Notes: generated by a model from the sequence alone, not told the origin. A stretch of 64,000 bases of DNA from an uncultured Candidatus Saccharibacteria bacterium (GCA_946414345.1 CAMKOB010000002.1:6540-70539), one strand, 5' to 3'. Shown: positions 3,582-33,400, counted from the stretch's first letter. Program-made: numbers and translations.

Positions 3582-3608
3582 TTGATTTTAGTTTAAGCTG
3601 AGTGACGA

Positions 3609-3638: not shown

Positions 3639-3683
3639 ATAACCATAAAGTTTATAAACACAAACACAAAAAGGTAAAGACAT

Positions 3684-5498
3684 ATGTCATCAAAACTTCT
3701 TATTAACGTAAATGACGCTAGTCCATCTGTAGTGCCAGACACTAGTGCACCAGATACTGGTATGTTTAGTGCCTCCCATGCAGATGGAGTGCACTTTAAT
3801 ACTAGTATGATTTTGCCAATTATTGGTATCGCTGTTTTAATAATTGCTATTATCGCAGGAACGATTGTAGCGGCTTCTCGTCGCAGAAAAGTAAATCGTT
3901 TTACTACGCATACTAATAAACACTTAGTGGCTAAACTAACTACATTATCCGTAGTAGTACTACTTGGTGCGCTGGCTGTAATGAATCTAGACAAACTTTC
4001 TAATCTAGCTAGTGCAGTACTTCTGGTAGATGATTTAAAAAACAATGATGACAATAGTCTTACTATTACGGCTAGTGATATCAAGATTGATGTAGATTTA
4101 AATGACAAAGCAGTCTTTGCTGCTGGCGAAAGTGTAGTTACTGTAGATTCTGCTACTGAGGCTGGATACACATTAATGGCTTATGTAGATAGTACTGCTA
4201 CAGACCTAAAGAATGAAACTAATAAATCGTCTACTAGTACTATTACTATGCTAAACACTACAGACTTCAAGAACCCAACAGCTTTAACTAATAATACATG
4301 GGGTATTGCCACTACTAAACCAACGGACCAAACATCGGAAGTCTTTACTGGCCTTCCTACTACACTAGACACTGCTATGACATTAAAGATTACAGACGAA
4401 GCTACAACTGCTAATGATAAATCTACCTTCTACTATGGCACTTATATTACTCCAGACCTAGATTATGGTACTTATTCTGGTACTACCATTACTTATATTG
4501 CCATAGCCAATGTAACCGAACTGTGCAATCCAAATGCTACTACCATTGACGATGCGGTATGTATGCAAGATTTTGCTGGACCTAATCGTAACCAGATAGT
4601 TGATTCTATGACACCAGAAACCCAATATACACTCATAGACAAACGTGATGAGAAAAGCTATACGATTGCGAAACTTCGAATCAACTTAGGGAGTGTAATG
4701 AGAGGTTCTCATGACGATTATGCTGTTTGGATGACTCAAAACCTAGATCTCGACCTCGATTCTAATACTACATACACCAACGAGGACACAGATTTAGGTT
4801 TCAACTTGCGTACGGGTGAATATGAAACCGCTTCTTGGGCTCCGAGCCGTTCTACTTATACTAGCACAAATACTTTCAAGCATGATTGGTGTATTGGTGG
4901 TGAATGGGTTTCTAATGATTCAGAAATGCAAGGTACACACTGTTCTAATTTTGTACTAGAATCTTATGATCCGGGTGATTATTATTGGAATGGTGTTGTT
5001 CGTAGTGGCGACTTTTCTGCCAATGGTATTCCGCAGCATCATTTAGGTAATTATTACAACTGGAATGCTGCTGTAGCAATGAATGATACTTCTAATGTTT
5101 CTCATTCTGTTGAGCTGGGGCAATCTATTTGTCCCACTGGTTGGACTCTTCCTACAGGCGTTTACTCCTTCTTTCGTTTGTGGTATTCTTATGATTTGGA
5201 TGAATATTCTTATAGCCCAAGAGATCTGGATGCTGCTGGCGAGCTTAATACTGCTCTTTGGCTTGAGCCACTTTATTTCAATATGAGTGGTTTTTTCGAT
5301 GGCGAATTGAGCCATATTTCGTTTGGAGGATTTTTATGGAATTCATTGTCTTCAATTAAAGGAGAAGCTTCTAGCGCTGGTTTCCAGGAATGGAATGCTG
5401 TGTCTGCCCCAAATGGTAGAGCTTACCGTGGTCTCGGTGTTTCTGTCCGTTGTGTCGTCCGCTCAGGAGAGATGTTTAGCTTAGTGCCATTGGGTTAG
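3684..5498 (+). CDS. Surface protein, paralogue A: N-terminal sorting-signal-like module, shared beta-rich module, FISUMP (Fibrobacter succinogenes major paralogous, TIGR02145-like) C-terminal domain
   Basis: In-frame TAA at 3675-3677 fixes the ATG at 3684. C-terminal signature VWMTQNLDLDL...HLGNYYNWNAAVAMN...SICPTGWTLPT...GVSVRCV. The N-terminus is PDTG, a TM helix, RRRK, then a second TM helix. Confidence 0.8.
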   Translation: MSSKLLINVNDASPSVVPDTSAPDTGMFSASHADGVHFNTSMILPIIGIAVLIIAIIAGTIVAASRRRKVNRFTTHTNKHLVAKLTTLSVVVLLGALAVMNLDKLSNLASAVLLVDDLKNNDDNSLTITASDIKIDVDLNDKAVFAAGESVVTVDSATEAGYTLMAYVDSTATDLKNETNKSSTSTITMLNTTDFKNPTALTNNTWGIATTKPTDQTSEVFTGLPTTLDTAMTLKITDEATTANDKSTFYYGTYITPDLDYGTYSGTTITYIAIANVTELCNPNATTIDDAVCMQDFAGPNRNQIVDSMTPETQYTLIDKRDEKSYTIAKLRINLGSVMRGSHDDYAVWMTQNLDLDLDSNTTYTNEDTDLGFNLRTGEYETASWAPSRSTYTSTNTFKHDWCIGGEWVSNDSEMQGTHCSNFVLESYDPGDYYWNGVVRSGDFSANGIPQHHLGNYYNWNAAVAMNDTSNVSHSVELGQSICPTGWTLPTGVYSFFRLWYSYDLDEYSYSPRDLDAAGELNTALWLEPLYFNMSGFFDGELSHISFGGFLWNSLSSIKGEASSAGFQEWNAVSAPNGRAYRGLGVSVRCVVRSGEMFSLVPLG

Positions 5499-7885: not shown

Positions 7886-8725
7886 ATGGAGCCAACAAAT
7901 ACAACAACACCATCAGCAACACCTAATGCGCCGTCTGATTTGCCTTTGCCGCCAGAACTACCTACTCTACCATCGGACCCTCCTGCTTTAAACCCGATTT
8001 CTCCGATGGAACCAGAAGCGCCTGTTGCCCCAGAGGCTCCTGTTGCCCCAGAGGCTCCTGTTGCCCCAGAAGCTCCTGTTGCTCCAGAGGCTCCTGTTGC
8101 CCCGGAGGCGCCTGTTGTTGAACCGGTGGCTCCAGTGGTTCCCGAGGTTCCAGCCGCTGAGCCAGCTGCTCCAGAAGCTCCTGCTGTTGAGCCAACTACT
8201 CCTGAGTCGCCAGCTGCGGCGGCTACAGCTCCAGATTTGTCTGACGTGGTGCCAGAAGCTTCCGCTGTTTTAGAAACACTTCAGACTTCAACTCTTGAGC
8301 AAGCTGTCAGTCCTGATGCACCGGCCGCTTCAATTGAATCGCCCGTTGCGGCTACGCCTGCAGATTCTGGTGCCAATACGTCTTTTGGCGCGATGGACCC
8401 GATTACGATGCCAACTCCGGCTAAAGCTCCAAATCCTGAAGAGGAAGAACTCAAGTCGCCTTTAAAGGCGGCAGAGCCAGTGCCTGGTTCAATTGGTAGT
8501 GCGATTTCGGTTCCATCTGAGACTGGTGCCATTGGTGCGGCTCAGGGTTTACAGACGTCAAGTATGGCCTATAATGATCCCAAGACTCAACAAAATAAAG
8601 CAGACGGTAAGTCGGCAAAAAAGAAAATGAGCAAGAGCACTTTGATACTTTTGGGTGTGCTTGGCGTTGTTGTAATTGTAGTTTTGGTAGTAGTATTAAT
8701 TCAAATGTTGGGTTCGGGCAAATAG
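7886..8725 (+). CDS. Pro/Ala/Glu-rich repeat protein with a single C-terminal TM helix (tail-anchored)
   Basis: AAGGAAG Shine-Dalgarno. Six PEAPVA repeats. C-terminus KKKMSKSTLILLGVLGVVVIVVLVVVLIQML. Confidence 0.7.
   Translation: MEPTNTTTPSATPNAPSDLPLPPELPTLPSDPPALNPISPMEPEAPVAPEAPVAPEAPVAPEAPVAPEAPVAPEAPVVEPVAPVVPEVPAAEPAAPEAPAVEPTTPESPAAAATAPDLSDVVPEASAVLETLQTSTLEQAVSPDAPAASIESPVAATPADSGANTSFGAMDPITMPTPAKAPNPEEEELKSPLKAAEPVPGSIGSAISVPSETGAIGAAQGLQTSSMAYNDPKTQQNKADGKSAKKKMSKSTLILLGVLGVVVIVVLVVVLIQMLGSGK
8012..8119 (+). repeat. Six in-frame tandem copies of an 18-bp unit (CCAGAGGCTCCTGTTGCC-like) encoding PEAPVA
   Basis: Units at 8012, 8030, 8048, 8066, 8084 and 8102, differing by a few synonymous or near-synonymous changes. 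Confidence 0.9.
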
Positions 8726-8737
8726 TTTAGGAGGATA

Positions 8738-10153
8738 ATGAGTAAAGTATATATTACGACGGCAATTCCGTACGTAAATGGTCAGCCACACATTGGACAT
8801 GCGATGGATTATTGTCTTGCGGATGTTTGTGCGCGTTATAATAATTTGATTGGCAATGAAGTGCGCTTGCAGGCTGGTACTGATGAGCATGGTGGGAAGA
8901 TTTTTAAGAAGGCAGAAGAGCTCGGCAAGCCTGTGGAACAGTATGTAGCGGAGAACGCCGAGAAATTTCAAAATTTTATTCATTCTTTGGGGGTAGAATA
9001 TACTGACTTTGTGCGAACTACAGATGAAGAACATCAAAAACGTTGTCAAGAAATCTGGAAGCGACTTGAATCACATATTTATAAGGCGAAGTATGAAGGT
9101 TGGTATTGTACTGGTTGTGAAAGATTCGTGACCGATAAAGAAGTTGAAGAGAATAATGGAGTTTGTCCTGACCATCAGAAACCTTATGAACAGCTTTCGG
9201 AAGAGAACTATTATTTTAGGATTTCGGATTTTAAAGATCAAATTAAGAAGGCGATAGAGTCTGATGAACTGTTGATTTTGCCCGATTTTCGTAAAAAAGA
9301 GATGCTAAAATTGCTTGATGAATCGCCTGATGTTTCGGTTTCGCGTTCGTCTGAACAATTGACTTGGGGTGTACCGGTGCCGGATGATGATTCACAGGTG
9401 ATGTATGTGTGGATAGATGCGCTATCTAACTACCTTACGGTTTTGGGGTATCCGGATGTTACTGTTGAGGATTGGTGGCCTGCGCAGGCTCAATTTGTAG
9501 GTAAGGATATTTTGAGATTTCATGCAATAATATGGCCAGCGATGCTTCTTGGCCTCGGTTTACCTTTGCCACACTATTTAGTATCTCATGGAATGGTGCT
9601 TGCAAATGGCCAAAAGATGTCGAAGTCAATTGGAAACGTGGTTGATCCGATGGAAGTGATTGAAAAACATGGTATAGATGGATTCCGCTATTACTTCTTG
9701 CGTCACATTGATACTTTTGCGGACTCAGATTTTACCTGGGAAAAATTTGATGAAGCATATAATAATGAACTTGCGAATGATTTGGGTAATTTAGTGCAAA
9801 GGCTCGCAACTTTGGCTGCAAAGAATAATTTCAAGCTTAGTGAAGCTTTTAATCCTGAGATTCCGCAGGAATATCGTGAGCTAATGGATAACTTTGAATA
9901 CTCAAAAGCGATGGATTATGTTTGGGAAATATTACAAGGATTAAATCGTCGAATAGATGAGGAAAAACCATGGAGTCTTGCAAAAAATGGTGAAAAAGAA
10001 AAATTGGACATGTGTCTAAAAAATCTTATCTGTAAATTACTTAATGCTAATTATTTGCTTTCTCCGTTTCTGCCCAATGCGACTGAGAAAGTATCGGCAG
10101 TATTTGCTAATCCGATAACACCGCCCGAAATACCTTTGTTTCCAAAACAATAA
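8738..10153 (+). CDS. metG: Methionyl-tRNA synthetase (short form)
   Basis: PYVNGQPHIGHAMD (HIGH), CTGCERF...CPDH zinc knuckle, GQKMSKSIGN (KMSKS). GGAGG Shine-Dalgarno. Confidence 0.95.
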   Translation: MSKVYITTAIPYVNGQPHIGHAMDYCLADVCARYNNLIGNEVRLQAGTDEHGGKIFKKAEELGKPVEQYVAENAEKFQNFIHSLGVEYTDFVRTTDEEHQKRCQEIWKRLESHIYKAKYEGWYCTGCERFVTDKEVEENNGVCPDHQKPYEQLSEENYYFRISDFKDQIKKAIESDELLILPDFRKKEMLKLLDESPDVSVSRSSEQLTWGVPVPDDDSQVMYVWIDALSNYLTVLGYPDVTVEDWWPAQAQFVGKDILRFHAIIWPAMLLGLGLPLPHYLVSHGMVLANGQKMSKSIGNVVDPMEVIEKHGIDGFRYYFLRHIDTFADSDFTWEKFDEAYNNELANDLGNLVQRLATLAAKNNFKLSEAFNPEIPQEYRELMDNFEYSKAMDYVWEILQGLNRRIDEEKPWSLAKNGEKEKLDMCLKNLICKLLNANYLLSPFLPNATEKVSAVFANPITPPEIPLFPKQ

Positions 10154-10185
10154 AAAAATAGCCCCTTTGGTGGGGCTATTTTTTA
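10153..10185. terminator. Bidirectional terminator between convergent metG and the MIP channel gene
   Basis: AAAAA-ATAGCCCC-TTTGGT-GGGGCTAT-TTTTTT, with an A-run and a T-run flanking an 8-bp stem. Confidence 0.75.
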
Positions 10186-11118
10186 TTCTTCGCCGGAAAG
10201 CTTGGAAGTAAAGTCAGATAAGTAGAAGCCGACAACTCCACCAATCATTGGGAAGAGAGCGTAGATTGAGAGTGCTTGGCAAACGCCACCCAAAATCTCG
10301 CCGAAGTTTTCGCCTGCAGTTGGAAAGATTTGAAGCATCAAAGCAGCTGCTGGATTGAATATGAAATTGCCTGTAAGGTTGCCGAAGAATGCTGCGGATA
10401 CAATGTAACCAATGAAGGTTGCTGTTACCATGCCACCTACTACGGTCGTAGCAAAGGTGAATACGCTGCGCTTGTATTTGAGACCACGTGCAAAGAAGAA
10501 TCCGATAATGATAGCGCCCAGTAGCTCCACCATTGTGAAAATCCAGAATTGATTTTCGCCAACAGCGGTCATAGTTGGTACGTCCATTGCTCCTTCGCCG
10601 CCGGCAACATGGAATGAATTAAAAATGAGCCAGCCGAGCCAGGCACCGATAACTTCTGCAATGATATACATGAAGCCACGAATGACTGAGATGCGGCGAG
10701 ATGCCATCATACCCACAACGATTAGTGGGTTGAGGCAAGCACCTGAGAATGCATAAATTGCGATGAAAATTGCAATTAGCGCAAAGGTGTACATTGCCAT
10801 GTTATGGATACCGATTAGTGAGAATGAGAATAGGAGAAGTGTGATGAGTGCTACACCTATAATTTCACCAAGTAGCGCACCGTAGAACTTATGATTTTTG
10901 AAGATAGTGAGAATACTCTCTTTTTCTTCGTATTTTTTAGCAAAGAAACCACTAAGACAGGATTTTTTGGCTTTTGGTGCTGTAGTGACATCTTTTTCTT
11001 CTGTATGGGTTTTGATAGCCTCGGATACTGGCTTTTCGACAGTTTTCGCGGCAGTTTTAGGTTTGGTCGTTTTGGCTTTTGCAGTCTTTGACGACGTCTT
11101 AGGCTTTTTTGTTGCCAT
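10183..11118 (-). CDS. MIP-family channel (aquaporin/glycerol-facilitator-like) with a basic N-terminal extension
   Basis: Multiple hydrophobic helices. Half-motifs SGACLNPLIVVG and GNFIFNPAAAL (NPA boxes). ~70-aa Lys/Thr/Ala-rich N-terminus. Confidence 0.8.
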   Translation of the reverse strand: MATKKPKTSSKTAKAKTTKPKTAAKTVEKPVSEAIKTHTEEKDVTTAPKAKKSCLSGFFAKKYEEKESILTIFKNHKFYGALLGEIIGVALITLLLFSFSLIGIHNMAMYTFALIAIFIAIYAFSGACLNPLIVVGMMASRRISVIRGFMYIIAEVIGAWLGWLIFNSFHVAGGEGAMDVPTMTAVGENQFWIFTMVELLGAIIIGFFFARGLKYKRSVFTFATTVVGGMVTATFIGYIVSAAFFGNLTGNFIFNPAAALMLQIFPTAGENFGEILGGVCQALSIYALFPMIGGVVGFYLSDFTSKLSGEE

Positions 11119-11163
11119 CTTTCCTCCTTAAATAATATTTACTCTATTATAGCACACTATTTA

Positions 11164-11172
11164 TGTTATAAT
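11164..11172 (+). promoter_or_regulatory. Extended -10 (TGTTATAAT) 6 nt upstream of a small ORF
   Basis: TGTTATAAT, then GAAAAA, then the ATG at 11179. Confidence 0.4.
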
Positions 11173-11178
11173 GAAAAA

Positions 11179-11343
11179 ATGGGAATAATGTTGACTAAAG
11201 AAGATGATAAAAACGCTGAATTATCACGGCGAATTAATGCCGATTTGCGCGCAAAGATGGACACGCAATCTAAAATGGAAGACCCGGATTTTGTAGAAGG
11301 TTCGGCTTATATGGAAGACTTTTTGAAGAATATTAAGATATAA
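11179..11343 (+). CDS. Hypothetical 54-aa acidic protein
   Basis: ORF below the track cutoff: MGIMLTKEDDKNAELSRRINADLRAKMDTQSKMEDPDFVEGSAYMEDFLKNIKI. It has the same TATAAT-N6-ATG geometry as neighbouring leaderless genes. No homology recognised. Confidence 0.35.
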   Translation: MGIMLTKEDDKNAELSRRINADLRAKMDTQSKMEDPDFVEGSAYMEDFLKNIKI

Positions 11344-11346
11344 ATA

Positions 11347-11355
11347 TGGTATAAT
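11347..11355 (+). promoter_or_regulatory. Extended -10 (TGGTATAAT) 7 nt upstream of the pheS ATG (leaderless)
   Basis: TGGTATAAT at 11347-11355 and ATG at 11363. Confidence 0.55.
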
Positions 11356-11362
11356 ATAATAT

Positions 11363-12322
11363 ATGAACGAGTTGGAGTCTTTAAAAAAAGAATTAAAGGA
11401 TTTGAATGCGCAATATGCTCAGATTCGTGATATTGCACCAGAGGAGCGGGGAAAATTTGGTCGTGAATTAAATGCACGAAAGATGGCGATATTAGAGAAA
11501 ATTCGTGTTGCTGAGGAGGCCGCGCTTGATGTAGCGGTGGAGCCTCTTGATGTTACGGCGCCATGTGGTGTGAATGAACCTTTGCCAACTACTTATTCGG
11601 TATTTCAGGGTTCTAGACATCCGTTGATGACGGAGCTTGACAGGGTTGTGTCGATTTATCAGATGATGGGCTTTGATGTAGTAGAATCTCGACAACTTGA
11701 CGATGAATTTCATATGTTTGATTCTTTGAATTTTGCTAAGGAACATCCGGCTCGAGATGGTTATGATACTTTTCGTACGGAAGAGGGGTTGATACCACCA
11801 GCGCATACTTCCACAATGCAACATCGGGTACTTAAGATGTATCGTGATAAATTAGCACAAGGTGGAGAAATTGCCGTTGTGGTGCCAGGTAGAGTATATC
11901 GGAATGAAGATGTGGATGCAACGCATGAGCATACTTTTTATCAGTGTGAAGGAGTGTATGTGTCACGTGATTGCACGATGGGCGATATGCTTGGAATTTT
12001 GAGAGAATTCTTTGAAAAATATTATGAACAGAAATTGAACATTCGAACACAGCCTGGCTATTTTCCATTTACGGAACCTTCGCTGGAATTTTTGATTGAA
12101 AAGCCCAAAGCTCTAGGTGGCAAAAAGGGTGATTATTTGGAAATGCTGGGCTGCGGGATGATTCATCCTAATGTTCTAAAAATGGCTGGAATTGATCCGA
12201 ATGAGTATCATGGTTTTGCATGGGGTGGTGGAATTGACAGGTTGGTGATGCTACGCTACGGCTTGATGGACGTGCGACACTTTGAGTCGGGGGATCTCAG
12301 ATTCTTAAGGGAAATTAAATAG
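11363..12322 (+). CDS. pheS: Phenylalanyl-tRNA synthetase alpha subunit
   Basis: Class II motifs HPARDGYDTF, GRVYRNEDVDATHEHTFYQCEG, FPFTEPSLEF, GCGMIHPNVL. Confidence 0.95.
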   Translation: MNELESLKKELKDLNAQYAQIRDIAPEERGKFGRELNARKMAILEKIRVAEEAALDVAVEPLDVTAPCGVNEPLPTTYSVFQGSRHPLMTELDRVVSIYQMMGFDVVESRQLDDEFHMFDSLNFAKEHPARDGYDTFRTEEGLIPPAHTSTMQHRVLKMYRDKLAQGGEIAVVVPGRVYRNEDVDATHEHTFYQCEGVYVSRDCTMGDMLGILREFFEKYYEQKLNIRTQPGYFPFTEPSLEFLIEKPKALGGKKGDYLEMLGCGMIHPNVLKMAGIDPNEYHGFAWGGGIDRLVMLRYGLMDVRHFESGDLRFLREIK

Positions 12323-12335: not shown

Positions 12336-14711
12336 ATGAGAATATCGTTAAATTGGCTAAAAAAATATGTTTCGGTACCAGTTTCAAATGAAGATTTGAT
12401 ACGTTTAATTGGTGCGAGATTAGTGGAAGTTGAAGGTGTAATTGACGAAAGTGCTAAATATAATAATATTTATGTAGCAAAAGTAGTAAGTGCCGAAAAG
12501 ATACCTGACACACATTTGACTCTTTGTCAAATTTATGTTGGTGATAAAGAAATTGATAAGGTTGAAAAAAATGAAGCTGGTTTGGTGCAAGTGGTGTGCG
12601 GAGCGCCAAATGTACATATTGGGATGTTGGCTGCTTGGATTGCTCCTGGGGCTATCGTACCTGTCTCAGTACATGAAGATGCTCCATTTGTGATTGGCAA
12701 ACGTAAAATGCTTAACAAATATGATTCGTTTGGTATGCTTGCCGGTGCGGACGAGTTGGACTTTGGTGGTGATCATTCGGGGATTGTAGAAATTAATCCA
12801 TCGGAGGCGCAGCCAGGTGATTTGTTGTCGGATGTGTTTGAATTAAACGATTTAATATTGGAGATTGAAAATAAATCTTTAACGCATCGACCGGATTGTT
12901 TTGGTATTATTGGTTTTGCTAGGGAAGTGGCAGGGATTTTGGGTGAGAAGTTTGATGAACCAGAATTCTTGACGGAAGAAAAGGTATTCCCGAAAGGGTT
13001 CTTTGCTAAGTGGGGAAATGGAATTCGGGCTAAGAAATCTGAGCTAACCGTGAATATTGCCAACCCAGAGATTTGTCCGAGATATAGTTGTGCGGTGATT
13101 AAGGTGGTTGAGCCAACTGCAGAAGATAAGTATTTGTCAGAAATGAAGATTCTTTTGGCAAAATCTGGAATGCAAAGTGTTTCAAAGATTGTTGATATCA
13201 CAAATTATTTGATGTTGCTTACTGGGCAGCCGTTGCACGCTTTTGATTACGATAAGTTTTTGGCTGTGGGTGGGAGCGAAAAACCAATTGTTAATGTGAG
13301 ATTGGCGTATGGAGGTGAGACGATTGAACTATTAGACGGCAAAGAAATCGTTTGCGTGCCGAGCGATATTTTAATTACTTCAAATGATGTACCGGTGGCG
13401 ATGGCCGGCGCGATGGGTGGTAAGAATACGGAAATTGACGAAAGCACAAATAATGTGTTGCTTGAGTCAGCGTCGTTTAGCTTGTTTAATCTTCGCAAAA
13501 CGCAGATGGAGCATGGTATTTTTAGTGAAGCGATTACAAGATTTACAAAGGGCGTACCGGCAGGTGGTACATTTAACGTGCTTGCTGAGGCGATTAAGGA
13601 AATTAACGGTAAGCCACTTGATGCTTGCGATGCGTTTGTAGGATGGAAAAAACCTCAGGAGGTAGTCGTTTCGGTGAGCGAAATAAATGCTTTGCTAGGG
13701 ACTGATTATAGCAAAAAGTTGATTATAGAGACGCTTTCTAATGTAGGATTTGATATTGAGAGTAGTGGTGATGTTTTGACGGTTTGGGCAAAAGTTTGGC
13801 GAACGGATATTCATATCAAAGAAGATATCATTGAAGAAGTGGGCAGACTACTTGGATATGATAATATTGAGCCAACGTTGCCGCGTCACGCCACGGCTGA
13901 GAAAAATCGGATGTTGGAATTAAAGTCGCATATTCGTGAAATAATGAAAGAATATGGTGCGAATGAAGTGTTGACTTATAGTTTTGTGAGCGAAAGGTTA
14001 CTGAAGAAGGCTGGTTTGGATGCAAATAATTCATACAAAATTGTGAATTCGATTTCACCGGATTTGCAGTATGTGAGACAAACGATTGTGCCGAGTTTGC
14101 TTGAGAAGGCTTATTTGAATCAGAAGTTGCCAGTAGATAAATTTGCGATTTTTGAAGTGAATAAAGTTTATCAAAAGTGCTGGGGCATGGATGATGAAAA
14201 CGTGCCGGTCGAGAGAATGCAAATGGGCTTTGTAGTAGCAGAACGCAAAACCACTGGTGACGCTTATTATAAGGCAAAATTCTTTGCGGAGAAGATGCTT
14301 GAAGAGCTAAATATTAAGGTGAAGTTTTTGCCACTTCGAAGTTTGGCGGCGGATGCGTTGCCGTTTGAAAATAAGCGGGCGGCTGAGATCTGGACGCTTG
14401 ACGATCAGTATGTTGGTGTGGTGGGTGAGTTTAAAAATTCGGTGCGTAGGAATTTTAAATTGGCGGAATATTTGGCTGGATTTGAGTTGGGTGTTGACTT
14501 AATTAATCAGTTGGCTGGTATTCGTGCGGTAAAAAGTGATTTCGAAGTTAAAGATCAGATTGACGAGACTGTCACAACTGATAAGAAGTATGCTGAAGTT
14601 TTGGCTGAAGTGAGTGGTAAATATCCTAATGCGGTTATCACGCCGGTTTCGATTTATCAGCCAGAAGGCGCTAGTAAAAAGAATATTACTTTTCATATCG
14701 AAAAATACTAA
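12336..14711 (+). CDS. pheT: Phenylalanyl-tRNA synthetase beta subunit
   Basis: MRISLNWLKKYV N-terminus, tRNA-binding domain, B3/4 and B5 regions, 791 aa. GGAGG Shine-Dalgarno directly after pheS. Confidence 0.95.
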   Translation: MRISLNWLKKYVSVPVSNEDLIRLIGARLVEVEGVIDESAKYNNIYVAKVVSAEKIPDTHLTLCQIYVGDKEIDKVEKNEAGLVQVVCGAPNVHIGMLAAWIAPGAIVPVSVHEDAPFVIGKRKMLNKYDSFGMLAGADELDFGGDHSGIVEINPSEAQPGDLLSDVFELNDLILEIENKSLTHRPDCFGIIGFAREVAGILGEKFDEPEFLTEEKVFPKGFFAKWGNGIRAKKSELTVNIANPEICPRYSCAVIKVVEPTAEDKYLSEMKILLAKSGMQSVSKIVDITNYLMLLTGQPLHAFDYDKFLAVGGSEKPIVNVRLAYGGETIELLDGKEIVCVPSDILITSNDVPVAMAGAMGGKNTEIDESTNNVLLESASFSLFNLRKTQMEHGIFSEAITRFTKGVPAGGTFNVLAEAIKEINGKPLDACDAFVGWKKPQEVVVSVSEINALLGTDYSKKLIIETLSNVGFDIESSGDVLTVWAKVWRTDIHIKEDIIEEVGRLLGYDNIEPTLPRHATAEKNRMLELKSHIREIMKEYGANEVLTYSFVSERLLKKAGLDANNSYKIVNSISPDLQYVRQTIVPSLLEKAYLNQKLPVDKFAIFEVNKVYQKCWGMDDENVPVERMQMGFVVAERKTTGDAYYKAKFFAEKMLEELNIKVKFLPLRSLAADALPFENKRAAEIWTLDDQYVGVVGEFKNSVRRNFKLAEYLAGFELGVDLINQLAGIRAVKSDFEVKDQIDETVTTDKKYAEVLAEVSGKYPNAVITPVSIYQPEGASKKNITFHIEKY

Positions 14712-19246: not shown

Positions 19247-20515
19247 GTGCGAATTGTAATTGCTACGGCAGTATATCATCCAATGATAAATGGGGTGGCA
19301 GTATTTGCGCATAATCTTGCGATGGGGTTAGTATCGCGTGGAAATGAAGTGGTGGTAATTTGCCCGTCGCGTACTGGCAAAAATTATGTTTTGATGGAGG
19401 ATGGGGTGGAGGTGCATTATCTGCGATCGGTGCAGGTGAAGGTTTACCCAGACCAAATTCATGATGTGCCGGACAAGAAAACTTTTCTGGGCGTAAAACT
19501 ACCGACTTTATATCGGCATGGTTTTAGGGTTTCGGTGTTTCCAGCGATTGAGGTGAGAAAAATTTTGGATGATTTTTTGCCGGATGTGGTACATGTGCAG
19601 GTATCTGATCCGATTGGACTTTCGGTGGTTTCTTATGCGCGAAAAAATGGTATTCCAGTGGTGACGACAGAACATAACCAACCGGAGGTTTTGACGGAGC
19701 CATTAAGGGTGCCGAAGCTAGTGAAAAAGCCAGTGGATGCTTTGCTGTCGGCGTATTTTGTAAATCGGCAGAGTAAGAGTGATTTTGTGACGATGCCAAC
19801 TAAGAAGGCGATTTATAAATTGTTGGAGGGGAAGGATATTAAGGTGCCGGTAGCGGCGGTGTCGAATGGGGTGGATTTGTCGGCTTTTCGGCCAGGGAAG
19901 GTTTCAAGTACATTTTACAAGAAATATGGTGTGCCTTCGGGTCGGCCAGTGGTTTTGTATGTTGGGCGAGTAGATCCAGAAAAGAATGTAGGTTTAGTGA
20001 TTGAAGCTTTCAAATTAACTCTTGCCAAAGTGCCGTCGGCTGTTCTTCTGATTGTAGGGGATGGAGTAGACAAAGCTAGACTGATGGGCTTGGTGGAAGA
20101 AGATTCTTTACTAAAAAAATCTGTGATTTTTGCTGGCCGAGTGGTGCCACCAGATTTGTATGAGATGTATCGTTTGGGTTCGGTTTTTGCTACGGCTTCG
20201 GAGATTGAGACGCAGGGAATTGTGCTTGTGGAAGCGGCGGCGTCTGGTTTACCTTTGATTGCGGTGGACAAAGGTGCCGTAAGTGAGATTTGCGTAAATG
20301 GGGAAAATGGATTTTTATGTGAGCCAGGTGATGTCGCAGGGATTGCGGAAGCGATGGTACGTGTCTTGTCGGATGACTCATTGCGTAAGAAGTATTCGCA
20401 GCGGTCGGTAGAGATTGCGACGGAACATGATTTTGAAAAGACTTTGGATAAGTTTTTGAATATATATCGGCGGGTAATTAAAATGAAAAAAGCAGAGGAA
20501 TCTCCTCGGGAATAA
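19247..20515 (+). CDS. GT4-family (GT-B) glycosyltransferase
   Basis: N-terminus RIVIATAVYHPMINGVAVFAHNLA. C-terminal domain LYVGRVDPEKN...ASEIETQGIVLVEAAASGLPLIAVDKGAVSEI. GTG start abutting the ctpA stop. Confidence 0.85.
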   Translation: MRIVIATAVYHPMINGVAVFAHNLAMGLVSRGNEVVVICPSRTGKNYVLMEDGVEVHYLRSVQVKVYPDQIHDVPDKKTFLGVKLPTLYRHGFRVSVFPAIEVRKILDDFLPDVVHVQVSDPIGLSVVSYARKNGIPVVTTEHNQPEVLTEPLRVPKLVKKPVDALLSAYFVNRQSKSDFVTMPTKKAIYKLLEGKDIKVPVAAVSNGVDLSAFRPGKVSSTFYKKYGVPSGRPVVLYVGRVDPEKNVGLVIEAFKLTLAKVPSAVLLIVGDGVDKARLMGLVEEDSLLKKSVIFAGRVVPPDLYEMYRLGSVFATASEIETQGIVLVEAAASGLPLIAVDKGAVSEICVNGENGFLCEPGDVAGIAEAMVRVLSDDSLRKKYSQRSVEIATEHDFEKTLDKFLNIYRRVIKMKKAEESPRE

Positions 20516-20530
20516 TATCAGAAACGAAAG

Positions 20531-20564
20531 CGGGCGCTTCTTGCCTTGCGGCTTGAAGCGCCCG
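20531..20564 (-). terminator. G+C-rich hairpin terminating the minus-strand two-gene cassette
   Basis: 10-bp stem CGGGCGCTTC/GAAGCGCCCG with an inner GCC/GGC helix, 9 nt after the TGA at 20573-20575. On the minus strand it is followed by CTTTCGTTTC. Confidence 0.55.
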
Positions 20565-20572
20565 TGCGGGGG

Positions 20573-21097
20573 TCAGTTGGTACTGTTGAATGCTGCCTCG
20601 ATGTGCTCTTTGGCCAACTCTTCGCAACACATTGCTCGATCCTTATGGATGAGAGCGAGACGGCGATTGCCGTCGTAGTCCTTCTCCGTATGGCTGAGTT
20701 CTCTAGCGACGATTGCATGTGCGATATACGCGAAGAGGATGCCAACCAGGATGGTAATTCCTGCATAGAGCAAGATAGCCTTAAACGTGTCAGAGTTGCT
20801 GAGATTCAGGCTGAGCGCATCTCGTATACAAATGTTGATGCACTCGATTGTCGCGATGATGCCGGTCCCGAGCACGATGTGCGGGGTGAACCGGCGCAGC
20901 TTGTCTGCCTTGCGGCTGTTCTTTTCAGCTTTTGCTGAGTTTGCCTCTGCGTCCGCCTTATGTTTGGCGGCGTCTTTCTGCAGCCTTTCGGCCGCGAGCA
21001 AGTGCTCGTCAAACTTGGAAGCCTTTGGGACGAAGTCGAACGTGACCTTGTCGGTCATGTCGATGTCTTCTCGATTTAACCTTATAAGTTTACCCAT
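20573..21097 (-). CDS. Hypothetical 174-aa protein: charged helical N-terminus, two TM helices, ~45-aa C-terminal helical region
   Basis: AAGGAG Shine-Dalgarno 6 nt upstream of the ATG. TM1 ~aa 70-91 (FTPHIVLGTGIIATIECINICI), TM2 ~aa 105-131 (FKAILLYAGITILVGILFAYIAHAIVA). G+C well above background. Confidence 0.65.
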   Translation of the reverse strand: MGKLIRLNREDIDMTDKVTFDFVPKASKFDEHLLAAERLQKDAAKHKADAEANSAKAEKNSRKADKLRRFTPHIVLGTGIIATIECINICIRDALSLNLSNSDTFKAILLYAGITILVGILFAYIAHAIVARELSHTEKDYDGNRRLALIHKDRAMCCEELAKEHIEAAFNSTN

Positions 21098-21118
21098 TTT
21101 TTACTCCTTATTCTGTAG

Positions 21119-21295
21119 TTATGCCGCATAAGGATATGCGGTATCTTCGGGTTCTTTTTTCTTGGGTTTCTTTGTGGGTTTTCTGGGTTCTCTAGGTTCT
21201 CTGGGTTCTCTGGGTTTTTCGAGCGGCCATTCGAACTCCGGCCAATTCTCGTCGGGTTCTTGTTCTTCCGCCCTGGGGCGGTACTTGCAACTCAT
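21119..21295 (-). CDS. Hypothetical 58-aa Pro/Arg/Glu/Lys-rich protein (below the ORF-track cutoff)
   Basis: Own translation: MSCKYRPRAEEQEPDENWPEFEWPLEKPREPREPREPRKPTKKPKKKEPEDTAYPYAA. GGGAGG Shine-Dalgarno 8 nt upstream, and a consensus promoter upstream of that. Confidence 0.5.
   Translation of the reverse strand: MSCKYRPRAEEQEPDENWPEFEWPLEKPREPREPREPRKPTKKPKKKEPEDTAYPYAA
21176..21220 (-). repeat. About five tandem 9-bp units (GGGTTCTCT-like on the plus strand) encoding (K/E)PRE repeats
   Basis: GGGTTTTCT GGGTTCTCT AGGTTCTCT GGGTTCTCT GGGTTTTTC. Confidence 0.8.
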
Positions 21296-21337
21296 ACTAC
21301 AAACCTCCCGTTTTATTAATGTGCGATTTATGATTAC

Positions 21338-21366
21338 ATTATACCATACTAGGGCATAATTGTCAA
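21338..21366 (-). promoter_or_regulatory. Consensus sigma-70 promoter of the two-gene cassette
   Basis: The minus strand reads TTGACA, a 17-nt spacer (ATTATGCCCTAGTATGG), then TATAAT, with TG at the extended -10 position. Confidence 0.7.
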
Positions 21367-21403
21367 TAGCGATTATGGTTATTTGGGAGGTTTATAACAG
21401 GGG

Positions 21404-23674
21404 TTAGACCACAATGTTTAAGAGGTGGGCTTTTTTGACAAAAATCGACTTTTTGACGCCATTTTTAGTGTATTTGGCGACTTTTTCATCAGAGAGAGCT
21501 AGAGAGGTGATTTTTTCTTCATCTTCGAGATCTTCGGTTTTTACGGTGAGTTTGGCGCGGAGTTTACCATTGACTTGGACTATTACTTCTACCGTGTCAG
21601 AGGTGAGATATTTTTCATCCCACTTGGGCCATTCGTCATCTGTATCGAGCCTTTCGAGCATTTCGGAGGCTAGATGCGGAGCGAAAGGTTTCAAGAGTTT
21701 AGCGAGGGCAATGAGATCTTCTTTGCTAGCGCCCTGTTTATAGAGTTCATTAACATATTCCATTAGGGCTGCAACTGCGGTGTTGAAATTGCATTTGACG
21801 ATGTCAGTGGTGACTTTTTTTATCGTTTTGTTACGGATAATAATGTTGTCTGCTTTGGAGATATTGCCAAGTAGGCTCCAACAACGGTTAAGGAAGCGAT
21901 AAACGCCACCGACAGAACGGGGATCCCAGGCGGCATCAAGCTCGACTGGACCGATGAACATTTCATAGGTACGAAGTGTGTCGGCGCCATAGCCATCATT
22001 GATAACGTCGAGTGGGTCGATGACGTTGCCTTTGCTTTTACTCATTTTTTTGCCATCTGGGGCGTTGATGTAACCATGATAGATAAGTTTTTTGATTGGT
22101 TCACGGAATGGTAAATAACCTTCGTCGGCGAAGAATTTGCACCAGAATCTGACATATAACAGATGGGCGACGGCGTGGTCGGCACCGACGTAGATATCGA
22201 CTGGTTCCCAATATTTGATGGCTTTTTCGTCCCAGGCGTGTTTTTTGTCGTGTGGTGAAGCGTAGCGCCAGAGGTACCAAGATGAACAAGCGTAGCCATC
22301 GAGTGTGTCGGTTTCGCGGGTCATTTCTTCTACTTTGCCAGTATCTTCGTTGTAGAGCTCGACTTTGAGCCAATCTTTGGCTTTGGCAAGGGCGGAATGG
22401 CCGGAATTATCGGGCCTAAAATCTTCTACTTCTGGAATAAGAACGGGGAGTTGATCTTCTGGAATTGGATGAGGATTACCTTCTTTGTCGTAAGCGATAG
22501 GAATTGGACAACCCCAGTAACGTTGACGAGAAATGAGCCAATCACGCATCTTGTAAGTGATTTTGGGGGTGCCATAAAGATCACGGTCGACAAATTCGGC
22601 TTCAACGATGGGTAGGTCGAATTTTTCGGCAAATTCGCGGTCGCGATCGTCGTAGGCTGGAACTGCCATGATGGCGCCTGTGCCATAGCCGGCGAGTACG
22701 TAGTCGGCGACGTAGACTGGGATTTTTTCTTTGGTGGCAGGATTAATTGCGTAGGAGCCGGTAAAGACGCCGGTTTTTTCTTTGTTTTCTTGGCGCTCGA
22801 TTTCGGATTTTTTGAGAGCGGCAGTTTTGTAGGCTTTGACTGCTTCTTTGGTGTCGTCATTGGTTAAAGCGTCTAGACTGGGGTATTCTGGAGCGACCAC
22901 TAAGAAGGTAGCACCGAGAATGGTGTCTGGACGAGTGGTGAAGACTTTGATTTTGGGTGCACCACCGACAATTTCGAAATCGATTTCGGCACCGGCAGAG
23001 CGACCAATCCAATTTTTCTGCATGGTTTTGATTTTGTCAGGCCAGTCGAGAGCGTCGATTTCAGAGAGTAATTCGTCGGCATATTCGGTGATTTTGAAAA
23101 ACCACTGTTTCATTTTTTTCTTTTCGACTTCATGACCACAGCGCCAGCATTTGCCGTTTTCGACCTGTTCGTTGGCGAGAACGGTTTGGTCTTCTGGACA
23201 CCACCACTGGTAGGATTCTTTTTGGTAGGCGAGGCCTTTTTTGTAAAGCTGGAGGAAGCACCACTGAGTCCATTTGTAGTAATCTGGGTCGGAGGTGTTA
23301 ATTTCGCGGTCCCAATCGATGGCGTAGCCGAGGCGCTTGGCTTGCTTGCGGAAATTATTGATGTTGATTTTGGTTACTTCTTGAGGTGCGGTGCCAGTTT
23401 TGATGGCATAATTCTCGGCGGGGAGACCAAAGGTATCATAGCCGAACGGGCGCATGACGTTGTAGCCTTGCTGGGCATAGAAGCGTGCAAGGACATCAAC
23501 AATAGTGAAGTTACGAACGTGGCCAACGTGTAGGCCGGCGCCAGATGGATAAGGGAACATCTCAGCGATGTACATTTTTAGGGTGTCTGGTTTTTCAGTG
23601 GCTTTGAACGTTTTGTTGTCGGCCCAAATTTTTTGCCATTTTTGTTCTATTTTGAGCGGTTCGTATCTTTCCAT
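21404..23674 (-). CDS. leuS: Leucyl-tRNA synthetase
   Basis: PYPSGAGLHVGHVRN (HIGH), KMSKSKGN (KMSKS), 756 aa. Confidence 0.97.
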   Translation of the reverse strand: MERYEPLKIEQKWQKIWADNKTFKATEKPDTLKMYIAEMFPYPSGAGLHVGHVRNFTIVDVLARFYAQQGYNVMRPFGYDTFGLPAENYAIKTGTAPQEVTKININNFRKQAKRLGYAIDWDREINTSDPDYYKWTQWCFLQLYKKGLAYQKESYQWWCPEDQTVLANEQVENGKCWRCGHEVEKKKMKQWFFKITEYADELLSEIDALDWPDKIKTMQKNWIGRSAGAEIDFEIVGGAPKIKVFTTRPDTILGATFLVVAPEYPSLDALTNDDTKEAVKAYKTAALKKSEIERQENKEKTGVFTGSYAINPATKEKIPVYVADYVLAGYGTGAIMAVPAYDDRDREFAEKFDLPIVEAEFVDRDLYGTPKITYKMRDWLISRQRYWGCPIPIAYDKEGNPHPIPEDQLPVLIPEVEDFRPDNSGHSALAKAKDWLKVELYNEDTGKVEEMTRETDTLDGYACSSWYLWRYASPHDKKHAWDEKAIKYWEPVDIYVGADHAVAHLLYVRFWCKFFADEGYLPFREPIKKLIYHGYINAPDGKKMSKSKGNVIDPLDVINDGYGADTLRTYEMFIGPVELDAAWDPRSVGGVYRFLNRCWSLLGNISKADNIIIRNKTIKKVTTDIVKCNFNTAVAALMEYVNELYKQGASKEDLIALAKLLKPFAPHLASEMLERLDTDDEWPKWDEKYLTSDTVEVIVQVNGKLRAKLTVKTEDLEDEEKITSLALSDEKVAKYTKNGVKKSIFVKKAHLLNIVV

Positions 23675-30457: not shown

Positions 30458-33400
30458 ATGGCTACAACAAAAAAGGTAGGTGAGAGAGTATTTTTCACCG
30501 AAGGTGACCAAGCTCTCCCAATTCCTGATTTGATTGCACATCAAAAGGATAGTTGGGATGACTTTGTCAAAAATGGCCTGAGAGAAGTTTTTGCTGAACT
30601 AAACCCGATAGACGACTATACGGGACAAAAATTATCTCTTCGGTTTAAAGATTATTATTTTAAAGAGCCAAAGGAAACTGAGCAGGTTGCGAAGTATAAT
30701 TTGGCTACCTATGAGGCACCACTACATGTTTTGGTGGAACTCGAAAATAAAGTGACGGGCGAGAAGAAAGAACAGGATATCTATTTTGGTGACTATCCTT
30801 GGATGACCGAACGCGCAACTTTTGTAATCAATGGTACGGAACGTGTAATCGTATCGCAATTGATTCGTTCGGCGGGTGTTTTCTTTAATGCTGAAACGAT
30901 TGGAGTGAGGCGCTATTATGGTGCGAAAATCATTCCTGGTCGTGGTGCATGGCTAGAGTTTGAAACTGCGGTGAATGGATCGATTAACGTGAAAATTGAT
31001 CGCCGCCGTAAGCTTCCAATCACAACTTTCCTTCGAGCTCTTGGCATGAGTAAATCTGATATCAAAAAGAGCTTTGAAAAGGTTGATGTTGGTGATACTA
31101 AATATATTGATGTTACGCTTGAGAAGGATACGACTTCTAGCCAAGGTGAAGCTTTGCTTGAAGTGTATCGTAGGATTCGCCCAGGCGATTTAGCAACGGT
31201 TGAGAACGCGAAATCAATGATTGAGCGAATGTTCTTTGACCCGAAACGTTATGATTATTCTGAAGTTGGTCGTTTTAAGATTAATCGTAGACTTAAATTA
31301 GATGCTCCAAATAAACCACAATACCGCACTCTTCAGATGGCTGATGTGGTGGCGATTATTTCGGAGATTATTCGTTTGAACAATACGCAAGATGCTCCAG
31401 ACGACATCGACTCGCTTTCAAATCGTCGAGTAAAACTAGTTGGTGAATTGGTTCAGAGACAGTTCCGTCTTGGTATGCTTCGCTTGCAACGAAACATCCT
31501 TGACCGTATGTCGATGGCAAATCCAGCTGACGTTACACCGTCACAATTGCTTAATGCAAGACCAGTCGTCGCTGCGGTAAAGGAATTCTTTTCTACCTCA
31601 CAACTTTCGCAGTTGATGGACGAAGTCAATCCATTTTCAGAGCTTGCCCACAAGAGGCGTCTATCCTCAATGGGCCCTGGTGGTTTGACGAGGGAACGTG
31701 CAGGGTTTGACGTGCGCGATGCTCATCCGACTCACTATGGTCGTATTTGTACTGTGGAAACACCGGAAGGTGGTAACGTGGGTTTGGTGTTGAACTTTGC
31801 AACATATGCCAGAATTAATAAATATGGTTTCATTGAAGCACCGTATCGTGTAGTAAAAAATGGCAAAGTGACAGATGAAATTGTCTATGTCGATGCTGAA
31901 ACTGAGAACGATATGATTATCGCTGATGCTTCGGTAAAATTGGACAAAAATGGTAAATTTGTAGAAGATTGGGTATCGGCTCGTGTGCATGGAGCGCCAG
32001 CGCACGTGGAAGCAAAAAGAGTTACCCACATTGATGCAGCTCATAAGGAAATTTTAGGTGTTTCTGCATCTTTAATTCCATTTGTAGAAAAGAACCGTGT
32101 TGACCGCTCTTTGATGGCTTGCGCAATGCAGAAACAGGCAGTACCTTTGCTTCGTCAAGATAATCCAATCGTTGGTACTGGTATTGAAGGTGAAGTTGCT
32201 AGAAATACCTCACAATTGATTACAGCCGAAGGTGCTGGTGTGGTGAAAAAAGCTGATGGCGTTTCAGTTATTGTAACTTATGACAAGGGTGGCGACAAAG
32301 AATACAAGCTGCAGCATTTTGAAAAAACTAACGATGATCGTTGTTATAACCAACGTTGTGTTGTGGCTCGTGGACAAAAAGTGAAGAAGGGCGATATTCT
32401 TATTGAGGGCGCTTCGATTCACAATGGCGAGCTTGCGCTTGGACGTGATCTATTGGTTGCATTTATGCCGTGGCGTGGTTATAACATGGATGATGCAATT
32501 GTGATTTCAAATCGTTTAGTTGAAGATGATACTTTGACGTCGATTAACATTAAAGACTTCGATGTTGAAGTGCGTGAGACTAAACTTGGCCCAGAGCAAG
32601 TGACGCGAGATATCCCAAATGTTTCTGAACATTCTTTAAGACATCTTGGTGAAGATGGTATCGTGACTGTTGGTGCTGAGGTAAAAAATGGCGACATCCT
32701 AGTTGGTAAGATTACACCAAAGGGCGAGCAAGAGCTTTCAAGTGAGGAACGATTACTTCGCGCAATCTTTGGCGAAAAAGCTAAGGATGTACGTGACACT
32801 TCGATTCGGATGAATGGTTCTTCGACTGGTAAAGTGGTGGATGTCCGTATTTATACCCGTGAACAAGGACATGAATTAAAGGCTGGCGTTATCATGCAGA
32901 TTAAGATTTTCGTTGCAGAAATGCGTAAAATTGGCGTAGGTGATAAGTTGGCTGGTCGTCACGGTAATAAAGGCGTGGTGTCTAGGGTTCTTCCGGTTGA
33001 AGATATGCCATTTATGGCAGACGGTACGCCAATAGATATTGTATTGTCTCCAATGGGCGTGCCAAGCCGTATGAACTTAGGACAGTTATTTGAAACCCAT
33101 CTTGGTATGGCAGCAAGAGCTCTTGGTTACACTGTGGCAACACCATCATTTAATGGTGTGCCAGATGAAATCATTAGCGATGAGCTCGAAAAAGCAGGCT
33201 ATGCTCGTGATGGTAGAATTCAATTATTTGATGGTTTGACTGGTGAGCCATTTAACGAAAGGACTTCTGTTGGTGTGATGCATATGCTAAAGCTTCACCA
33301 TATGGTGGAAGATAAGATCCATGCTCGTTCGACTGGTCCATATACGATGGTAACGCAACAGCCACTTGGTGGTAAAGCACAGAATGGTGGCCAGCGGTTC

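Follow-up and report, generated by a model that had tools for sequence, protein, structure and literature searches.

The chromosome of an uncultured Nanosyncoccus bacterium (Candidatus Saccharibacteria) carries, between leuS and a gene for a GT4 glycosyltransferase, 888 bp on the minus strand which read as an autonomous transcription unit: the standard strong promoter of the genus, a leader, an open reading frame (ORF) of 174 amino acids (aa) with two predicted transmembrane (TM) helices (ORF174), and an intrinsic terminator. The unit occupies positions 20516-21403 of the 64,000-nucleotide (nt) stretch of DNA that was analyzed, which is referred to here as the window. It is probably an old, accessory and hypervariable resident cassette encoding a cytoplasm-facing, membrane-anchored helical hairpin, and not a recent island or a toxin/antitoxin pair. 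The evolutionary and anatomical description of the unit is held with good confidence. A function is proposed only tentatively: the protein could be a membrane adaptor that faces the cytoplasm and acts in specificity or conflict. A first-pass annotation of the window had described a self-contained, strongly promoted cassette of two genes and of foreign composition, in which a 58-aa ORF (ORF58) precedes ORF174. The promoter it reported matches the consensus at all 12 positions, and the two Shine-Dalgarno (SD) sites, the two ORFs and the hairpin are all present on the minus strand; with its own consensus promoter and terminator the unit is self-contained and strongly promoted as had been stated. 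Literature searches turned up no earlier account of the locus.

The closest relatives of the window, in which leuS is 95% identical, have a two-TM gene at the same leuS/GT4 site. Copies related to ORF174 lie on the contigs L001, L002 and L003, which carry the proteins P0003 and P0002 (L003 starts only ~20 nt before the ATG of its ORF) and which have in common the gene order SpoU, Sua5, glutaredoxin, leuS, a 175-aa ORF, GT4, S41 peptidase, CHAP protein, FtsX and FtsE. When the window is compared with L001, synonymous divergence (dS) is 1.40 in ORF174 and 0.51 in leuS. The simplest reading of such old divergence of an ORF within recently shared flanks is recombination, and on that reading of the sequences the window and L001 would hold anciently diverged alleles of ORF174. 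Targeted hypermutation, as occurs for example in the target of a diversity-generating retroelement, was dropped as a candidate since dS between L001 and L003 is lower in the ORF (0.27) than in GT4 (0.43). No second copy of any ORF174 segment was found within the window.

Hypervariable allelic cassettes between conserved flanks are a feature of strain-variable immunity, specificity or surface loci that are exchanged by homologous recombination. The ORF174 unit resembles these loci in that nucleotide identity changes sharply at the borders of the coding region, from 48-72% inside it to 90-98% in the flanks, in that its synonymous divergence is far deeper than that of the neighboring genes, and in its patchy presence and the alternating cargo found at one chromosomal site. 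It differs from them in being a single small gene whose product is barely exposed outside the cell, so that the usual drivers of diversification (surface recognition involving antibodies, phage receptors or bacteriocins) are not obviously applicable, and in that we infer the co-circulation of alleles at this slot rather than observe it. Homologous recombination in the conserved flanks would exchange the alleles, and some lineages would have lost the cassette altogether.

A search with leuS yielded 80 species-representative loci, all from Candidatus Saccharibacteria or Nanosyncoccus and mostly from ruminant gut, in which leuS is 65-85% identical to that of the window. Relatives were compared over about 6 kb around leuS each, and "empty site" is used here as a statement on the leuS/GT4 junction and not on the whole genome. 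Searching the 80 loci with tblastn identified no homologue of ORF174 or ORF58. The site is empty in nine species (leuS 74-84% identical), where leuS and GT4 lie next to each other, separated by -8 to 81 bp. Five other loci (L015, L029, L030, L034 and L045) possess, just after the GT4 stop codon, a convergent two-TM ORF which looks unrelated in sequence. The L015, L030 and L034 ORFs form a family, for which a search of 5.8 billion protein clusters gave nothing beyond the three queries themselves. In a rough leuS tree the species with an empty site fall between carriers, a pattern that implies multiple losses or multiple gains.

The differing two-TM ORFs found at the same place are probably hyper-divergent counterparts of one old cassette, judging from their position, fold and composition. 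In the window, L001-L003, L015, L029, L030, L034 and L045, the ORF has the same position and orientation with respect to GT4, and the counterparts each have a consensus strong promoter, an SD site and a terminator. The ORF is still beside GT4 in L030 and L034, where leuS is rearranged or inverted. The promoter-upstream element of the window is clearly homologous in L015, with a shorter homologous stretch in L029 and L045 (alignment A5); the consensus common to the window, L001 and L015, CCyCTGTTATA..CCAAATAACCAyAAkC, lies outside the generic promoter consensus. Similarity within the promoter spacer was dropped as evidence of homology. The strong-promoter consensus of the whole genus is TTGACTTTTT-N-GTGTGnTATAAT, and this promoter architecture occurs in 75 copies in 1.08 Mb of Nanosyncoccus loci; only DNA upstream of the -35 box was therefore counted. 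L001-L003 and L015 retain the terminator stem GGGCGC..GCGCCC with its T-tract, and a stem like it is present in L045. AlphaFold2 predicts for the L015 protein the same two-long-helix hairpin as for ORF174, with helices at residues 10-108 and 114-207 and a mean predicted local distance difference test score (pLDDT) of 80, these two being the only members modelled. When a profile of ORF174 was searched against a six-frame database of 28,000 segments from all loci, the counterparts in L045 and L034 ranked highest after the self hits; L034, L030, L045 and ORF174 are also linked by weak reciprocal hits, with E values of 0.5-6. The counterparts also share a compositional trait. The two-TM ORF has the highest G+C content at third codon positions (GC3) of any gene of its own locus in L001, L015, L029, L030 and L034 (z 2.1-2.7). 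Its G content at third positions (G3) is 0.22-0.37 compared with 0.10-0.15 in the co-oriented leuS of L001, L015, L029 and L045; a G3 of 0.22-0.25 is seen in the ORFs of L030 and L034, two loci in which inversion has left leuS no longer co-oriented.

Four further loci differ at the junction. In L008 (3452-3693) and L009 (4621-4863) a miniature unit occupies the leuS-GT4 gap, with a weak promoter (TTGAAT-17-TACACT), a double SD site, a 23-aa ORF (MEVSIEDVKVTIKLKITPATKQK) and a terminator, and the 5' end of this unit (AGTGGGGTTGA) is complementary to its terminator region (TCAACCCCACT). Such a unit might encode a small RNA or a micro-protein, or be a remnant. The 23-aa ORF was considered as a remnant of the ORF174 N terminus owing to an EDx..KVTx likeness, for which an N-terminal profile search gave no support. 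L013 has a 3.1-kb insert (8403-11562) between leuS and GT4 containing ORFs, called on the strand opposite leuS, with internal repeats. Beside GT4, L026 has a 294-aa ORF (3395-4279) that is G+C-rich (0.52), and its SpoU and glutaredoxin genes are relocated.

Base composition was the ground on which the first-pass annotation had regarded the unit as an acquired island. The 60-nt lines that had been counted by hand were counted correctly (G+C 0.517 at 20821-20880, 0.583 at 20881-20940, 0.367 in rpoB at 31021-31080 and 0.383 in pheT at 13321-13380), and over its full length the unit has a G+C content of 49.7% versus 41.6% for the window, which is the 98.7th percentile of equal-sized windows. ORF174 by itself has 51.8% G+C (99th percentile of 525-bp windows), although other stretches of the window reach 57%. 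Its GC3 of 0.657 is the highest of 60 window genes (z +3.9), and its codon usage is the most atypical (z -3.7). GC3 is strongly dependent on gene orientation in the window, however, and simple G+C island calls are therefore confounded. The replication-strand skew of the window is extreme: minus-strand genes have a G3 of 0.09-0.15 and a C content at third positions (C3) of up to 0.43, and plus-strand genes have low C3 and are richer in G and T at third positions (the L001 GT4 gene has G3 0.47 and C3 0.05). The high C3 of ORF174 is thus partly due to the strand bias common to minus-strand genes. What is specific to ORF174 is a G3 of 0.24, when the remaining minus-strand genes have 0.109 +/- 0.018 (z +7.3). 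In ORF58 the GC3 is less unusual (0.475), but the G3 excess is the same (0.22).

A raised GC3 is moreover a property of the promoter class to which the unit belongs. For 49 ORFs behind consensus strong promoters in 83 Nanosyncoccus loci and the window, GC3 has a mean z of +0.86 and a median of 1.12, and 24% have z > 2. The claim of foreign composition is thus only partly sustained, the GC3, codon usage and G3 deviations being real, and the C3 component and membership of the strongly promoted class accounting for part of the effect. ORFs behind TTGAC[AT]-N14-TGnTATAAT are mostly small (130-230 aa), and several start with the same ...FEExDDxRTW motif and so may form a further paralogous family with strong promoters. 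The anomaly is also long-lived. In the sister lineage the L001 gene has a GC3 of 0.75, above that of the window gene, and its synonymous sites are saturated relative to the window. An anomaly which persists across saturated synonymous divergence, tracks the genome background and is class-wide among strongly promoted ORFs argues against un-ameliorated import from a high-G+C source. The G3 and GC3 excess could be caused by a transcription-linked mutation bias opposing the replication skew, by biased gene conversion at a recombining locus, by codon selection or by a shared mobile pool.

Import of the unit, or at least of the part that is coding, from a higher-G+C or mobile pool, either once in the ancestor of the window and L001 or repeatedly into the slot with replacement of earlier cargo, is accordingly an unlikely explanation, though several observations suit it. 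Apart from the extreme GC3 and codon usage, ORF174 lacks in its G3 the strand skew of other minus-strand genes, as would be expected of DNA not equilibrated with its position; the family is confined to one small clade, the site being empty or rearranged in the next relatives; and the cargo varies among species. Against import, no donor or mobile-element homologue was found in the 5.8 billion protein clusters, in 1.84 billion representatives or in phage, plasmid and viral collections. The borders of the unit have no integrase or transposase, tRNA target or long flanking direct repeat, the neighbors being leuS and GT4; scans for Rfam families and tRNAs found none in or near the unit, the nearest tRNA lying 26 kb away. 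Both promoter and terminator are of a native type and have homologues in other species, the compositional anomaly follows the background GC3 (0.47 in the low-GC3 L034, 0.75 in L001), and a raised GC3 is general among strongly promoted ORFs. The more specific suggestion of a recent acquisition from a high-G+C actinobacterial donor is not supported, given the lack of a donor homologue in any database searched, the native type of the promoter and the anomaly shared by the counterparts. As for site occupancy, an island would suit the nine species in which the site is empty; the closest relatives carry the gene at the same site, and others have counterparts there.

ORF174 is, from its pattern of substitution, a genuine gene under purifying selection, and by implication it is expressed. 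Between the window and L001, the proportions of differences at codon positions 1, 2 and 3 are 0.29, 0.22 and 0.45, and the ratio of nonsynonymous to synonymous divergence (dN/dS) is 0.20 (0.26 between L001 and L003). The flanking genes are under stronger constraint, with dN/dS of 0.03-0.10 and proteins that are 84-96% identical as compared with 62% for ORF174. Long antisense ORFs on the plus strand (20546-20938 and 20787-21131) are expected in G+C-rich DNA, and were dropped as candidate genes since substitutions follow the minus-strand frame.

That ORF174 matches no recognizable protein family, as the first-pass annotation noted, was upheld by searches of Pfam, PHROGs, PADLOC and NCBIfam, in which neither ORF174 nor ORF58 gave anything above threshold (PADLOC gave no hits at E <= 1). 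A word-index search of the 5.8 billion protein clusters identified only P0002 and P0003 as relatives of ORF174, with 62-63% identity, and an exhaustive HMMER profile search of the 1.84 billion representatives added only a weak match, P0004. BLAST searches of phage and plasmid sequences, together with scans of viral and metagenome sequences by peptide and DNA pattern, found no matches to the cassette. P0004 (L084 4191-5693, ENA sample ERZ2606005) is a 500-aa singleton of eight tandem units of ~62 aa with one hydrophobic helix each. Its unit motif, KFGPHAWLGL...IAIRDT, is weakly like RRFTPHIVLG...ICIRDA around the first TM helix of ORF174 (in common: RKFxPHxxLG...IRD); it matches no Pfam family and its neighboring genes are unannotated. 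With only ~10 bits per unit, P0004 was treated as a short-motif or transmembrane-bias match and not as evidence of relationship.

The AlphaFold2 model of ORF174 (mean pLDDT 81.4) consists of two long helices, 26-96 and 101-173, forming a hairpin. Hydropathy and the model agree in placing the membrane-spanning segments at the hairpin turn, preceded by a cytoplasmic N-terminal domain of 72 residues. The basic residues KLRRF ahead of the first TM helix and the short outer loop of only ~4-15 residues predict a topology with both termini in the cytoplasm (N-in, C-in). The N-terminal 25 residues, which are modelled with low confidence, are the best conserved (80-84% identical), and the TM helices and C-terminal helix are the least conserved (52-58%). 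This distribution fits a membrane anchor with a cytoplasmic interaction module, and not a pore former whose TM faces would be constrained. A tight helical hairpin would anchor the protein with almost nothing outside, and an antiparallel two-helix stalk of ~45 residues would project into the cytoplasm, tipped by the N-terminal peptide MGKLIRLxxEDxIDMTxKVTFDFxPK. This peptide may bind a cytoplasmic or membrane-proximal partner, with the TM hairpin serving mainly as an anchor. The pattern of alleles suggests a possible role in specificity or conflict, such as keeping out phage or foreign DNA or interacting in a strain-specific manner.

Several known proteins share elements of this architecture. 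Class II holins and pinholins are small phage proteins with two TM helices and an N-in, C-in topology. ORF174 has two TM helices, the same predicted topology and a charged C-terminal tail, but at 174 aa with a 72-residue cytoplasmic N-terminal domain and a constitutive consensus promoter it differs from holins, as it does in lacking an endolysin or phage context or a PHROG hit and in having its TM helices as the least conserved part. The SMODS and SLOG-associating 2TM effector domains of nucleotide-signalling defence systems are likewise small, helical and two-TM, and two such viral proteins are among the fold matches (ranks 28 and 32); however, these matches are weak (E ~0.1, TM-score ~0.3), no sensor or nucleotide-synthase gene is adjacent and PADLOC gave no hit. 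The inclusion-membrane (Inc) proteins of chlamydiae, which are type-III-secreted into a host membrane, combine a bilobed hydrophobic hairpin and coiled-coil tails that both lie on the same membrane face. The tight two-TM hairpin of ORF174, with both termini on the same side as long helices, is Inc-like, but there is no sequence match or significant fold match and nothing points to export of ORF174. Other fold-search matches, none of them significant, were to the colicin R-domain, YscO, SmhB/AhlB and internal virion proteins.

Alternatively, ORF174 could be an accessory of the cell envelope or of cell division that is tied to GT4 and to the adjoining FtsE-FtsX-CHAP hydrolase-S41 protease cluster, for example as the membrane anchor or regulator of a peripheral enzyme, evolving fast with only its architecture mattering. 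This is quite unlikely. The genes upstream are indeed those for FtsE, FtsX, the CHAP protein, the S41 peptidase and GT4, the ORF stays at the GT4 3' end despite the rearrangement of leuS in L030 and L034, and the architecture is kept while the sequence is free to vary. ORF174 is convergent to the cluster, however, and with its own promoter and terminator it is not co-transcribed with it; it is gone from the site in at least nine species that retain GT4; and deep allelic divergence within near-identical flanks would not be expected of a housekeeping accessory.

The description of the unit as a two-gene cassette does not hold in the relatives. ORF58 is missing from L001 and L002, in which the same promoter and SD site directly drive the 175-aa gene, and L003 has the same SD-to-ATG junction. 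GGGAGG, which immediately precedes the 175-aa gene in all three contigs, thus appears to be the ancestral SD site of the unit, now serving ORF58, and with an inherited promoter and SD site ORF58 is probably translated. The whole of ORF58 lies on a 202-nt indel that distinguishes the window from its sister contigs, and it is therefore not an obligatory or conserved partner of the two-TM gene. The borders of the indel are ambiguous by a few nt as there are GGAGG-like motifs at both ends, and the ends have a 6-nt inverted repeat, TGTAGT...ACTACA. No DNA resembling the indel was found elsewhere in the window or in the 83 loci, and a word-index search of the 5.8 billion protein clusters found no homologue of ORF58, which is a singleton. 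ORF58 is most likely a young, and possibly de novo, leader ORF. ORF58 and ORF174 are in the same frame, and a read-through fusion of the two was dropped as a candidate owing to two in-frame TAA codons between them. A perfect 7-bp hairpin, CCGCATA-TCCT-TATGCGG (21121-21144, minus strand; inverted repeat I6), spans the last ORF58 codons ~12 nt upstream of the ORF174 SD site and is not followed by a T-tract.

It is conceivable, though very unlikely, that the slot is a nursery of genes in which a resident promoter-terminator pair has given rise independently, from inserted or non-coding DNA, to unrelated small ORFs such as ORF174, the L015/L030/L034, L029 and L045 types, the 23-aa ORFs of L008 and L009, and ORF58. 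All of these families are orphans with no significant sequence similarity between them, ORF58 consists of 9-nt slippage repeats in an indel that captured a resident SD site, and L008 and L009 hold the minimal unit of promoter, SD site, 23-aa ORF and terminator. Independent births would be unlikely, though, to converge on a 170-230-aa charged helix-2 TM-charged helix arrangement with the same predicted fold and the same G3 and GC3, and the weak reciprocal similarities between families and the clear purifying selection on ORF174 also speak against them. The toxin-antitoxin or immunity, abortive-infection or holin-like pair that had been envisaged, with ORF174 as a membrane-damaging effector and ORF58 as its partner, can be set aside with little hesitation: although the module is compact and strongly promoted, with two small adjacent ORFs behind one strong promoter (a small charged peptide and then a small two-TM protein) as in type II toxin-antitoxin or bacteriocin-immunity pairs, and although the fold has a non-significant likeness to the hairpins of alpha-pore-forming toxins and to two-TM defence effectors, ORF58 is a repeat-built singleton confined to an indel of the window lineage, the two ORFs are not co-conserved, relatives lack ORF58 and have the 175-aa gene alone behind the same promoter and SD site, neither protein belongs to a known family in PADLOC, PHROG, Pfam or NCBIfam or has a phage or plasmid match, no endolysin or phage genes are adjacent, the TM helices are the least conserved part, and a membrane toxin made constitutively from a consensus promoter, with nothing to neutralise it, would kill the cell.

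Several points count against the interpretation of the unit as an old resident cassette with hyper-divergent counterparts. The six-frame hits could result from shared architecture and composition and not from ancestry. A comparison of alignments A1 and A3 with hhalign gave a probability of 38%, over the second TM helix and C terminus only; z values from windowed shuffles between subfamilies are inconsistent, ranging from 0.7 to 3.2; and L029/L042 show no sequence link to the other subfamilies in the shuffle and six-frame tests. Nothing more specific than generic helical hairpins came out of fold searches of PDB and BFVD, in which no match had E < 1e-3 (best PDB match 0.28, best viral match 5e-3). 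An empty site in loci of ~6 kb does not prove that the gene is absent genome-wide. The persistent G3 and GC3 excess could reflect repeated import from a shared mobile gene pool. Finally, it would take an outgroup to tell whether the window lineage gained the 202-nt indel or the L001/L003 lineage lost it.

The promoter of the unit, which begins 37 nt past the end of leuS, is the sole site within 19500-22500 that matches the consensus at all 12 positions, and it is kept in L001 and L002 with one substitution. The leader motif downstream of it matches G[TC]AC[ATC]TTA[AG], which is found downstream of 16 of 74 strong promoters when 0.53 would be expected, mostly 7-13 nt after the -10 box. The motif is thus located at or just after the likely transcription start, and one class of transcripts may have it as a conserved element of the start site or leader. 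It also occurs in L015, L020, L021, L024, L028, L042, L045-L048, L053, L076 and L080. A structured leader RNA was dropped from consideration, as the 263-nt leader folds no better than shuffled sequences (z -1.35). The terminator hairpin is found 16 nt past the GT4 stop codon, the GT4 gene converging on the unit. The T-tract behind the hairpin is better formed in L001 (GTTTTTATTTCT) than in the window (GCTTTCGTTTCT), where it is imperfect. Another inverted repeat (I1) pairs 21385-21405 (AACCCCTGTTATAAACCTCCC), just after the leuS stop codon, with 21289-21309 (GGGAGGTTTGTAGTATGAGTT) at the SD site and start of ORF58, the two being 76% complementary over 21 nt. The upstream element holds an anti-SD-like CCTCCC that is complementary to the SD site at 21304-21309, and since the first arm of I1 is upstream of the promoter, masking of the SD site would be possible solely in transcripts reading through from leuS. 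Within leuS there is an indel-rich patch (21808-21885) with 54% identity to L001 and 12 gap columns, surrounded by sequence that is 90-98% identical. The coordinates of the features are given in Table 1.

Table 1. Features of the leuS-GT4 interval of the window, its identity to L001, and two-TM ORFs at the same site in other loci
Feature	Position	Strand	Basis or remarks
leuS	21404-23674	-	Gene end at 21404
Promoter-upstream element, leuS stop to -35 box (CCCCTGTTATAAACCTCCCAAATAACCATAATCGCTA)	21367..21403	-	96-98% identical in L001/L002
Sigma-70-type promoter TTGACA-17 nt-TG-TATAAT, extended -10	21338..21366	-	12/12 consensus matches
Leader motif GCACATTAA, 13 nt after -10 box	21316..21324	-	Match to G[TC]AC[ATC]TTA[AG]
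202-nt indel relative to sister contigs	21109..21310	-	Alignment A2 and blastn breakpoints; carries whole ORF58, creates second SD site
SD site GGGAGG, 8 nt before ORF58 ATG	21304-21309	-	Read from sequence
ORF58, 58 aa, proline-/charge-rich, low-complexity	21119-21295	-	Composed of degenerate NAACCCNNN 9-mers, as is most of the indel
Tandem repeat of 9 nt within ORF58, in frame, 4.7 copies; codes for (P-R-E)n	21175..21216	-	Tandem Repeats Finder: period 9, 90% matches, score 70; family D1
Second SD site AAGGAG, 6 nt before ORF174 ATG	21104-21109	-	Read from sequence; absent from L001-L003
ORF174, 174 aa, two-TM	20573-21097	-	Frame intact in three lineages (alignment)
Predicted TM helix 1 codons (~residues 73-96), conserved RRFTPH motif just before	20810..20881	-	Hydropathy, AlphaFold2, alignment
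Predicted TM helix 2 codons (~residues 101-129)	20711..20797	-	Hydropathy, AlphaFold2
Intrinsic terminator, G+C-rich hairpin (20531-20564) and T-rich tail	20519..20564	-	-29.2 kcal/mol, z -3.2 versus shuffles; inverted repeat I2
GT4 glycosyltransferase	19247-20515	+	Pfam Glycos_transf_1 and Glyco_transf_4; converges on ORF174
leuS 3' end and promoter, identity to L001			96-98% nt identity (90-nt windows)
ORF174 coding region, identity to L001			48-72% nt identity (90-nt windows)
Terminator, identity to L001			84% nt identity (90-nt windows)
GT4 3' end, identity to L001			90-94% nt identity (90-nt windows)
L015 208/214-aa ORF, L030 226-aa ORF, L034 166/181-aa ORF			Mutually related, tblastn 1e-6 to 1e-8; alignment A3
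L029 135-aa ORF			Relative in L042
L045 ~170-aa ORF			Interrupted by assembly gap

Atypical G+C content alone is a poor sign of foreign origin in these chromosomes, as strand skew and promoter class account for much of it, and ORF58 provides a concrete candidate for a newly born ORF. Saccharibacteria are epibionts with reduced genomes, and most of their accessory genes are uncharacterised. It is possible, if doubtful, that the conserved slot holds ancient co-circulating alleles of an undescribed specificity or conflict determinant of these epibionts, acting for example in the intracellular exclusion of phage or incoming DNA or in recognizing partners strain by strain, that balancing or diversifying selection maintains these alleles and natural transformation swaps them, and that ORF58 is a de novo birth in progress from 9-nt slippage repeats. 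Should the specificity or conflict reading be wrong, ORF174 would be a lineage-specific orphan membrane protein of modest interest. The locus is compact and easily found, and it has conserved flanks from which it can be amplified by polymerase chain reaction, which would offer a way to study selection at the level of strains in bacteria that are difficult to grow.

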